This document shows positions 35,715-36,488 of a DNA stretch of 38,284 nt, piece after piece. Source of the stretch: a virus (Duplodnaviria; Heunggongvirae; Uroviricota; Caudoviricetes); IMG/VR virus record IMGVR_UViG_2778261592_000009, positions 1 to 38,284 of that record; one strand, 5' to 3'. A program made the position numbers and the translations under genes. Under the pieces are notes generated by a model. The model was not told where the DNA came from. It searched no databases and saw only the letters and a list, made by a program, of their open reading frames with translations. The first letter of the stretch is position 1, and every line of letters begins with the position of its first letter.

Positions 35715-36488
35715 TCAAAAATTAGGTGAGTAACGGACCGGGGACATAGCTCCTTTTTTTCTTAATTCATCTGGTATTTTTTTTCCAAGATAAAGATTTG
35801 CTATTTCAGGTGGGGCTTCTCGACCTTCAAAACCATAGCGAGAACTTTGTGTTGCCTCAAAGTCCGGATCCTCGTCCCAGTATTTCATCGTAGGGAAATT
35901 TTCACGTGTTGATTTGAGCCATTTATCAGCAATGAAAACCCCTCGAACGATCCCCCTTACAGTAGCAAGAATGACTTCTGCTTGGCTGGCGCGAGAGACA
36001 TTAATGCGCCAGCTAAATCGAACCGCATCATAAAGCTCTGAATCCTTTGCACTTCTGTTAACGGAAATCATTAATGCTTTATGATGAAATGTTATGGTTT
36101 CGGGTTGATATGTTGCTATCAACTCTTTGACATGCGCGGCGCCGAATTCATTGCTGCCAGCACCATTCATGATATTCGTTAACCCAGGGTAGGCATCAAT
36201 AAGTGCTGCTTCGACTTCGTACGCCGTCTTTTCATCAGTCATTCCGTGTCGATGGATGACATGGATAACCTCAAGTCCTGCTAACCTTATTTCTCTAATT
36301 TGCTTTAGCTTGTTGCTCAGTAACTCGTCATCATCAGTCGCTGCCACTTCACCGCGCATATGGGCAAATACGCGGTTACCTTTGCCTTTCCCTACATAGA
36401 AGGTGCTTCCGTCCCTCGGATCAATCAATCGGTATACATACCAGCCAAGGTGTTCAATTACTCCAGAAGGAAACTCAGTAATATCCAT
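35715..36488 (-). CDS. GIY-YIG-like nuclease-domain protein (257 aa), tentative
   Basis: ATG at 36488 (maximal ORF to 36539 starts TTG); N-terminal [29 protein letters not shown] fits GIY-(10)-YIG-...-R pattern; AT-rich; last gene before attR. Confidence 0.5.

Follow-up and report, generated by a model that had tools for sequence, protein, structure and literature searches.

The minus-strand gene beside the DNA invertase gene at the right end of the prophage studied here is an intact copy of CMoRE (PD-T4-3), a known prophage-borne restriction enzyme, and would, with a probability that we put at about 93%, act by the mechanism established for its near-identical relatives. The stretch of DNA analysed, called the window below, comprises the 38,284 nucleotides of the IMG/VR record IMGVR_UViG_2778261592_000009, assigned to Caudoviricetes. 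The enzyme itself is already characterised and crystallised, and the identity of the gene is no novelty; the new material is contextual and descriptive, namely that a fossil serU attachment site and the adjoining host flank travel with CMoRE, and that the slot next to the invertase is shared with McrA. The preliminary description of this locus, which had seen in it a GIY-YIG-like nuclease gene carried as terminal cargo next to attR, is supported both in what it observed and in how it interpreted it, with refinements that concern the function and the attachment site. The coordinates of the features discussed below are collected in Table 1.

Table 1. Features of the CMoRE locus and of other regions mentioned in the text; positions refer to the window unless stated otherwise
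Feature	Position	Strand	Remarks
CMoRE / PD-T4-3 coding sequence	35715–36488	minus	257 aa; stop codon 35715–35717
GIYxY-YIG nuclease domain	36159–36443	minus	Y17, Y19, Y31, R39, E93, N105; Pfam PF22945/PF01541
Acidic run D52-D53-D54-E55, autoinhibitory 'lid' in the inserted alpha2–alpha3 loop	36324–36335	minus	from sequence
C-terminal modification-sensing domain, about aa 125–257 (approximate boundary)	35718–36116	minus	includes Y127
Upstream region, 176 bp	36489–36664	minus	weak sigma-70-like candidate promoter
Pin-type serine DNA invertase	35100–35654	plus	Pfam Resolvase and HTH_7; pinE in all close matches
Truncated tRNA-Ser(CGA) gene serU, 3' 65 nt with a 1-nt deletion in the T-stem; serU-type att core	36665–36729	plus	alignment to serU and to resident serU loci
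Host DNA normally downstream of serU, towards yodB, 278 bp	36730–37007	plus	alignment
IS630-family-like scrap, 55 nt	37008–37062
AraC-family gene	37305–38057	plus	34% GC
IS3 integrase-core fragment	38099–38284
PDC-M11 candidate defence pair	827–2255	minus	two overlapping ORFs
cI-like repressor gene	2324–3052
Variable stretch in the baseplate/tail module	28150–30611		ORFs 28185–28526, 28647–29417, 29404–29799
Tail-fibre and assembly segment	33780–34575
CMoRE homologue, Serratia phage Moabite	2501–3265		coordinates of the extracted locus
CMoRE homologue, Pseudomonas phage OBP	2492–3253		coordinates of the extracted locus

Identity and domain structure of the enzyme

The minus-strand open reading frame is real: strain AR_452 carries an annotated 774-nt coding sequence with 100% nucleotide identity to the window gene, and the encoded protein is RefSeq WP_000355484.1. 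The list of open reading frames offers a longer version of 274 aa, opened by a TTG at 36539 and sharing the same end at 35715, and the ATG at 36488 yields the protein of 257 aa that begins with MDITEF. We regard the ATG as the right start because the 774-nt RefSeq coding sequence is identical in AR_452 and because this choice reproduces residue 1 and the numbering of the crystallised protein. In this numbering the peptide first singled out as fitting the GIY-YIG pattern spans aa 17–43. The reading frame had also been described as AT-rich; its GC content is indeed lower (43.9%) than that of the whole window (48.5%) and of the structural region (50.7%), but the difference is only mild.

Two matches run end to end through the protein. 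The PADLOC model for PD-T4-3 (PDLC04031) aligns residues 1–256 with positions 1–255 of its 256 (E 2.4e-140), and chain A of PDB entry 9U75, the CMoRE of E. coli O157:H7 (also 9U8D), is identical at 253 of 257 residues (98.4%, E 3.7e-172). Chain A of 9U7U, the CMoRE of APEC O1 (also 9U7Z), is identical at 219 of 257 (85.2%), and among the PHROGs the whole protein falls into phrog_5356 (E 2e-143), a group of unknown function in that collection. A GIY-YIG nuclease domain at the N-terminus, as proposed initially, is borne out by these matches and by the profile search, where Pfam PF22945 (LEM-3_GIY-YIG) scores 54.2 bits over aa 28–110 against a cut-off of 27. The classical GIY-YIG model PF01541 stays below its threshold (13.9 bits over aa 16–100, cut-off 22.6), which we attribute to the divergent GIYxY motif and not to a missing fold; the fold is confirmed by the crystal structures of near-identical proteins (98.4% identity). 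NCBIfam holds no model for this protein, and Pfam assigns no domain to its C-terminal part. The latter had been noticed as a second domain of about 150 aa without known function, and it corresponds to the domain by which CMoRE senses 5hmC and 5ghmC (PMC12923530).

All residues that have been named in the mechanism are kept in the window protein: Y17, Y19, Y31, R39, R80, V92, L96, Y127 and the acidic positions 52–55. With positions numbered as in PMC12923530, the third tyrosine Y19 lies between the conventional Y17 and Y31, and the nuclease-domain residues listed in Table 1 are unchanged even in distant phage homologues. The tetramer-interface residues V92 and L96 are present, and residues 1–50, including the beta1–beta2 loop, are the same as in 9U75. 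The acidic run is found at the same place in all three E. coli enzymes, as DDDD in that of O157:H7 and as DDDE in those of APEC O1 and the window.

The window enzyme thus resembles that of O157:H7 in its length, GIYxY-YIG motif, acidic loop, tetramer-interface residues, Y127 and single-gene organisation, and differs from it by four substitutions, T51 for A, E55 for D, Q169 for K and N197 for H. The first two lie in or beside the autoinhibitory loop, E55 being present also in the active APEC O1 enzyme, while positions 169 and 197 belong to the C-terminal domain. The APEC O1 enzyme has the same architecture and the same DDDE run, and its 38 substitutions fall mostly in the C-terminal domain. At the codon level, the window and O157:H7 alleles are separated by 23 synonymous and 4 nonsynonymous changes, and the resulting dN/dS of about 0.05 indicates that the gene is under purifying selection. 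The single-gene organisation is evident from the neighbours, a convergent invertase gene on one side and the tRNA fragment with the host flank on the other, and from the occurrence of the gene beside unrelated left-hand backbones.

Expected activity and alternative functions

PD-T4-3, a system with a GIY-YIG nuclease, was first found in E. coli ECOR68 when the E. coli pangenome was screened by functional selection (Vassallo et al. 2022, PMC9519451), and structures, biochemistry and phage assays have since been published for the CMoRE of O157:H7, APEC O1 and Klebsiella (Liu et al., Nat Commun 2026, PMC12923530). The O157:H7 gene alone, under its native promoter, lowers the plating of T2, T4 and T6 by a factor of about 10^5, and the cells survive a high multiplicity of infection, which marks the defence as direct and non-abortive (PMC12923530). 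Once purified, the enzyme binds and cleaves DNA that carries 5hmC or glucosyl-5hmC and not DNA with C or 5mC; on modified T4 DNA the cuts are spread over the whole genome and do not depend on a strict sequence, unmodified DNA is unbound, and T4 with unmodified cytosine escapes (PMC12923530). Cleavage follows the pattern CN11/N9G, leaves 2-nt 3' overhangs and needs two modified sites (PMC12923530).

The structural work assigns these properties to distinct parts of the protein. The N-terminal domain has a GIY-YIG fold with an extra tyrosine, hence 'GIYxY-YIG', and the roles of Y17, Y19 and Y31 were established by mutagenesis; the nearest structural neighbour of this domain is the N-terminal domain of UvrC (PMC12923530). 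A 15-residue acidic loop covers the active site, and once its four acidic residues are changed to alanine (4A mutant) the enzyme becomes toxic and accepts ordinary DNA as a substrate for cleavage (PMC12923530). CMoRE forms a tetramer, and the V92S/L96S double mutation disrupts both the tetramer and the defence (PMC12923530). [quoted passage not shown] Two further studies agree with these results: a Capnocytophaga homologue that is 48% identical degrades modified T4 DNA and Mu DNA and not T4-GT7 DNA (PMC12366544), and the plating of Tevenvirinae on the clinical isolate NILS69 rises when PD-T4-3, which is native to this host, is deleted (10.1101/2024.12.20.629700).

The course of events shown for the near-identical enzymes is the one that we infer for the window allele. 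Its C-terminal domain would bind DNA carrying 5hmC or glucosyl-5hmC, as found in T2, T4, T6 and related phages, and a dimer within the tetramer would read a pair of modified cytosines spaced by about 21 bp. Cleavage at CN11/N9G by the N-terminal GIYxY-YIG domains would follow, producing the 2-nt 3' overhangs. The acidic loop over the active site would repel ordinary and 5mC DNA, so that the host chromosome and the prophage are spared, and the infected cell would survive, making this a direct defence as opposed to abortive infection. The four residues that separate the window allele from the O157:H7 enzyme would leave it with the activity of the latter, and it is probably expressed from its own upstream region.

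The 816 bp on the 5' side of the start codon are 97.3% identical to their O157:H7 counterpart, and the O157:H7 gene defends from its native promoter, the upstream length of the construct not being stated (PMC12923530). Standard consensus scans found no promoter or terminator on the strand of the gene, and no strong promoter or obvious Shine-Dalgarno sequence upstream of the CMoRE start. A relaxed scan gives a candidate promoter with 8 of 12 consensus matches, consisting of the −35 element TTGTGA at 36549–36544, a 17-nt spacer and the −10 element TAATAT at 36526–36521, and its position is to be read as a prediction. The APEC O1 gene provides only weak defence from its native promoter (PMC12923530), which makes the expression level of the window gene uncertain.

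Three other readings of the gene were rejected on account of missing modules, the biochemistry of the family, and the intact reading frame with its low dN/dS. The gene could be a silent or decaying remnant lying among relics and no longer contributing to defence in this host. The lack of a clear promoter or Shine-Dalgarno sequence in the scans would agree with this, as would the degraded surroundings (the truncated serU with its 1-nt deletion, the IS630-like scrap and the IS3 fragment) and the position of the O157:H7 gene in a heavily deleted prophage remnant. However, the reading frame is intact and identical to the allele found in many genomes, and a dN/dS near 0.05 is not that of a decaying gene. 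Moreover, the O157:H7 copy reduces T-even plating by about 10^5 from its native promoter in a similarly degraded context (PMC12923530), and deletion of the gene in NILS69 has a phenotype (10.1101/2024.12.20.629700). We therefore consider such a remnant highly improbable.

Another possibility is a free-standing GIY-YIG homing endonuclease, which would spread by cleaving a specific target sequence in those alleles of related phages that lack the gene. [quoted passage not shown] Such labels in phage records are, however, similarity-based annotations and not tests, and the Pfam search, with E up to 1, reveals no NUMOD, IENR1, HTH or other DNA-binding domain of the homing type. The near-identical enzymes cut modified DNA genome-wide and leave unmodified DNA unbound, and their C-terminal domain binds 5hm-dCTP (PMC12923530), none of which suits a nuclease with a specific target, so that we find this explanation hardly credible.

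Among the sequenced phages of INPHARED there is no close copy of the gene, the best identity (45.5%) being found in Serratia jumbo phages. Lytic jumbo phages carry full-length CMoRE homologues of 40–47% identity (Table 1), annotated as homing endonucleases. These proteins keep Y17, Y19, Y31, R39, E93, N105, Y127 and the C-terminal domain, and have no acidic DDDE run; without this safety loop they might be less discriminating nucleases, directed against hosts or rival phages.

A DNA-repair nuclease of the UvrC/Cho type, supplied by the prophage to its host, has the fold of the nuclease domain in its favour, nearest to the UvrC N-terminal domain (PMC12923530), but its probability is negligible, as the 257 residues contain no UvrB-binding region, C-terminal endonuclease or helix-hairpin-helix by Pfam and NCBIfam, Pfam recognising the GIY-YIG part alone, and as close homologues restrict phage in dependence on cytosine modification. 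From the list of functions considered at the outset, defence is accordingly the one that stands, and homing and Cho/UvrC-type repair are dropped.

The fossil serU attachment site

The gene had been described as the last one before an att core, next to attR. This is true with respect to the serU fragment, which begins 176 bp from the CMoRE start codon and is the only att-like sequence in the window, but a working attR is present in only four genomes, and in the closest relatives the fragment is a relic. ARAGORN, run on the whole window, calls no tRNA, since serU is missing its first 24 nt, and the att fragment was found by alignment. Together with the host flank (36665–37007) it is 97% identical to the serU locus of about 5400 genomes, that is, of nearly every E. 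coli. The gene itself occurs at a nucleotide identity of at least 95% in 838 of 5426 complete E. coli genomes, and in 808 of these the order of pin end, gene and serU fragment is kept.

The working attachment site emerges from a chimeric query in which the gene, the serU fragment and the flank were joined to yodB, the native DNA that comes next; the whole of it is contiguous in only four genomes, MB15 among them. The order in MB15 is full serU, three ORFs, integrase, an e14/SfV-like prophage, pinE, CMoRE (WP_000355484.1), serU fragment and yodB. A 75-nt direct repeat, one arm of which is the serU fragment, bounds an element of 39 kb, and in this genome no further gene stands between CMoRE and a working attR. 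The three hypothetical genes between the intact serU and the integrase of MB15 (8183–10434 of the extracted locus) may represent cargo at the opposite end of this element.

In the window, the flank is followed by the IS630-family-like scrap, the AraC-family gene and the IS3 fragment. The product of the AraC-family gene is most like YdeO/GadX, far below their cut-offs, and this gene may be a prophage-borne YdeO-like regulator of acid resistance or virulence. The IS3 integrase-core fragment lies beside it, and the same block is present in O157:H7 as well as, beside argW, at the end of an unrelated prophage.

The arrangement to the right of pin is shared with several genomes. Window positions 35019–38284 are 99% identical to AR_452, and this gene order recurs in the O157:H7 genome Z1811, where an integrase gene comes after the IS3 fragment. 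In both the window and O157:H7 the gene is flanked by pinE and, on its opposite side, by the serU fragment, the AraC gene and the IS3 fragment; in the window it lies at the end of a prophage of full length whose head and tail genes are complete, whereas in O157:H7 it sits in a heavily deleted remnant. Eco_23-2667 shares the pin–CMoRE arm and diverges from window position 36683 onward.

In both AR_452 and Eco_23-2667 the prophage integrase abuts the tRNA-Thr gene thrW next to proA, and a 46-nt thrW repeat follows CMoRE on the right at a distance of 2.1–2.7 kb, a position that the alignment places about 263 bp past the end of the window. AR_452 has a second integrase after this repeat and, elsewhere, an intact, unoccupied serU, which indicates that the serU fragment and flank beside CMoRE are a duplicate relic there. 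In the closest relatives CMoRE is separated from the thrW repeat by the AraC-family gene and remnants of IS elements, and it is therefore not strictly the last gene of the element in those genomes. The integration site of the window prophage is deduced from these relatives, because the window lacks the left end of the prophage and its source genome is absent from the complete E. coli genomes, the best match among which has 93% coverage and 97.6% identity. The match in strain 74-2 (H39) was considered as a guide to the left end and rejected: it is a different mosaic prophage, located at icd, and shares the early region only.

The cargo slot after the invertase and its implications

The invertase gene is the left neighbour of CMoRE and the end of the tail-fibre module; the two genes are convergent, with 60 bp between their stop codons. 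The homology of the window to the cryptic prophage e14 of K-12 ends with pinE, at about 35656. In e14 the corresponding place between the pin invertase gene and attR is occupied by mcrA (14686–16180 of the extracted locus), so that McrA (EcoKMcrA) holds the slot that CMoRE holds here. McrA is, however, an unrelated protein, an HNH nuclease encoded in the opposite orientation, and e14 integrates in icd and not in a tRNA gene. EcoKMcrA, itself also a type IV restriction enzyme, targets 5mC and 5hmC DNA.

Other contents are found at the same place. The induced phage vB_EcoM-611R5, related to the window prophage by structural genes of 97% identity, has in this slot an unrelated ORF of 281 aa with no family match, and strain JS01 has an autotransporter gene there. 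The ORFs in and beyond the slot in vB_EcoM-611R5 and Eco_23-2667 have no informative Pfam or PADLOC match apart from a partial PDC-S64. P2-like prophages have an internal invertase gene, followed by tail sheath genes. By these sequence comparisons, prophages of this kind thus have a variable cargo site behind the invertase gene. The comparison of related prophages that the preliminary description envisaged hence reveals differing contents (CMoRE, mcrA, the 281-aa ORF, the autotransporter gene), and its view of the gene as prophage-end cargo, possibly for defence, agrees with the location of CMoRE in the right arm after pin.

What could be the origin of the serU fragment next to a gene that resides on thrW prophages? 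The right arm of the window (35019–37007) is 97% identical to MB15, and the rest of the two prophages is unrelated. In strain 673 a lambda-like prophage located beside argW has at its right end the serU fragment, together with the flank, the IS scrap and the AraC gene, and this copy of the block lacks CMoRE. We tentatively suggest, with confidence that falls somewhat short of even, that the block of pin, CMoRE, serU attR and 278-bp flank was captured from a serU-integrated prophage of the e14/SfV-like kind and was moved, host DNA included, onto unrelated thrW backbones. With McrA at the same place in e14, the slot after the invertase would then be a conserved one, through which prophages exchange type IV restriction enzymes by recombination in pin and in fossil att or flank DNA. 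The locus would offer a small example of the shuffling of defence cargo between prophages.

Several other regions of the prophage deserve mention. The tail-fibre and assembly segment by pin has the opposite orientation to that in AR_452 and MB15, which is consistent with the flipping of an invertible segment for host range, comparable to G in Mu or P in e14. The variable stretch in the baseplate/tail module contains three ORFs without Pfam or PADLOC match, and AR_452 has other genes at the matching place, including a toxin of the YafO family; this looks like another cargo site, within the structural genes. Beside the cI-like repressor gene, PADLOC identifies the two proteins of the PDC-M11 pair, PDC-M11B, an ASCH-domain protein of 125 aa (E 7e-52), and PDC-M11A, of 357 aa (E 2e-133), which would be a second defence candidate in the same prophage.

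CMoRE shares the logic of a sensor joined to a nuclease domain with other type IV enzymes dependent on 5hmC or 5ghmC, namely the PvuRts1I/AbaSI family and GmrSD. Their folds differ from that of CMoRE, combining a PD-(D/E)XK nuclease with an SRA-like sensor, or DUF262 with DUF1524. PvuRts1I likewise recognises 5hmC and 5ghmC (PMC12923530). The RefSeq name of the window protein, 'LEM-3-like GIY-YIG domain-containing protein', can be replaced by one that denotes a type IV restriction enzyme acting against phages with hydroxymethyl- or glucosyl-cytosine. As CMoRE is carried by about 15% of complete E. coli genomes, its recognition bears on the prediction of resistance to T4-like therapeutic phages.
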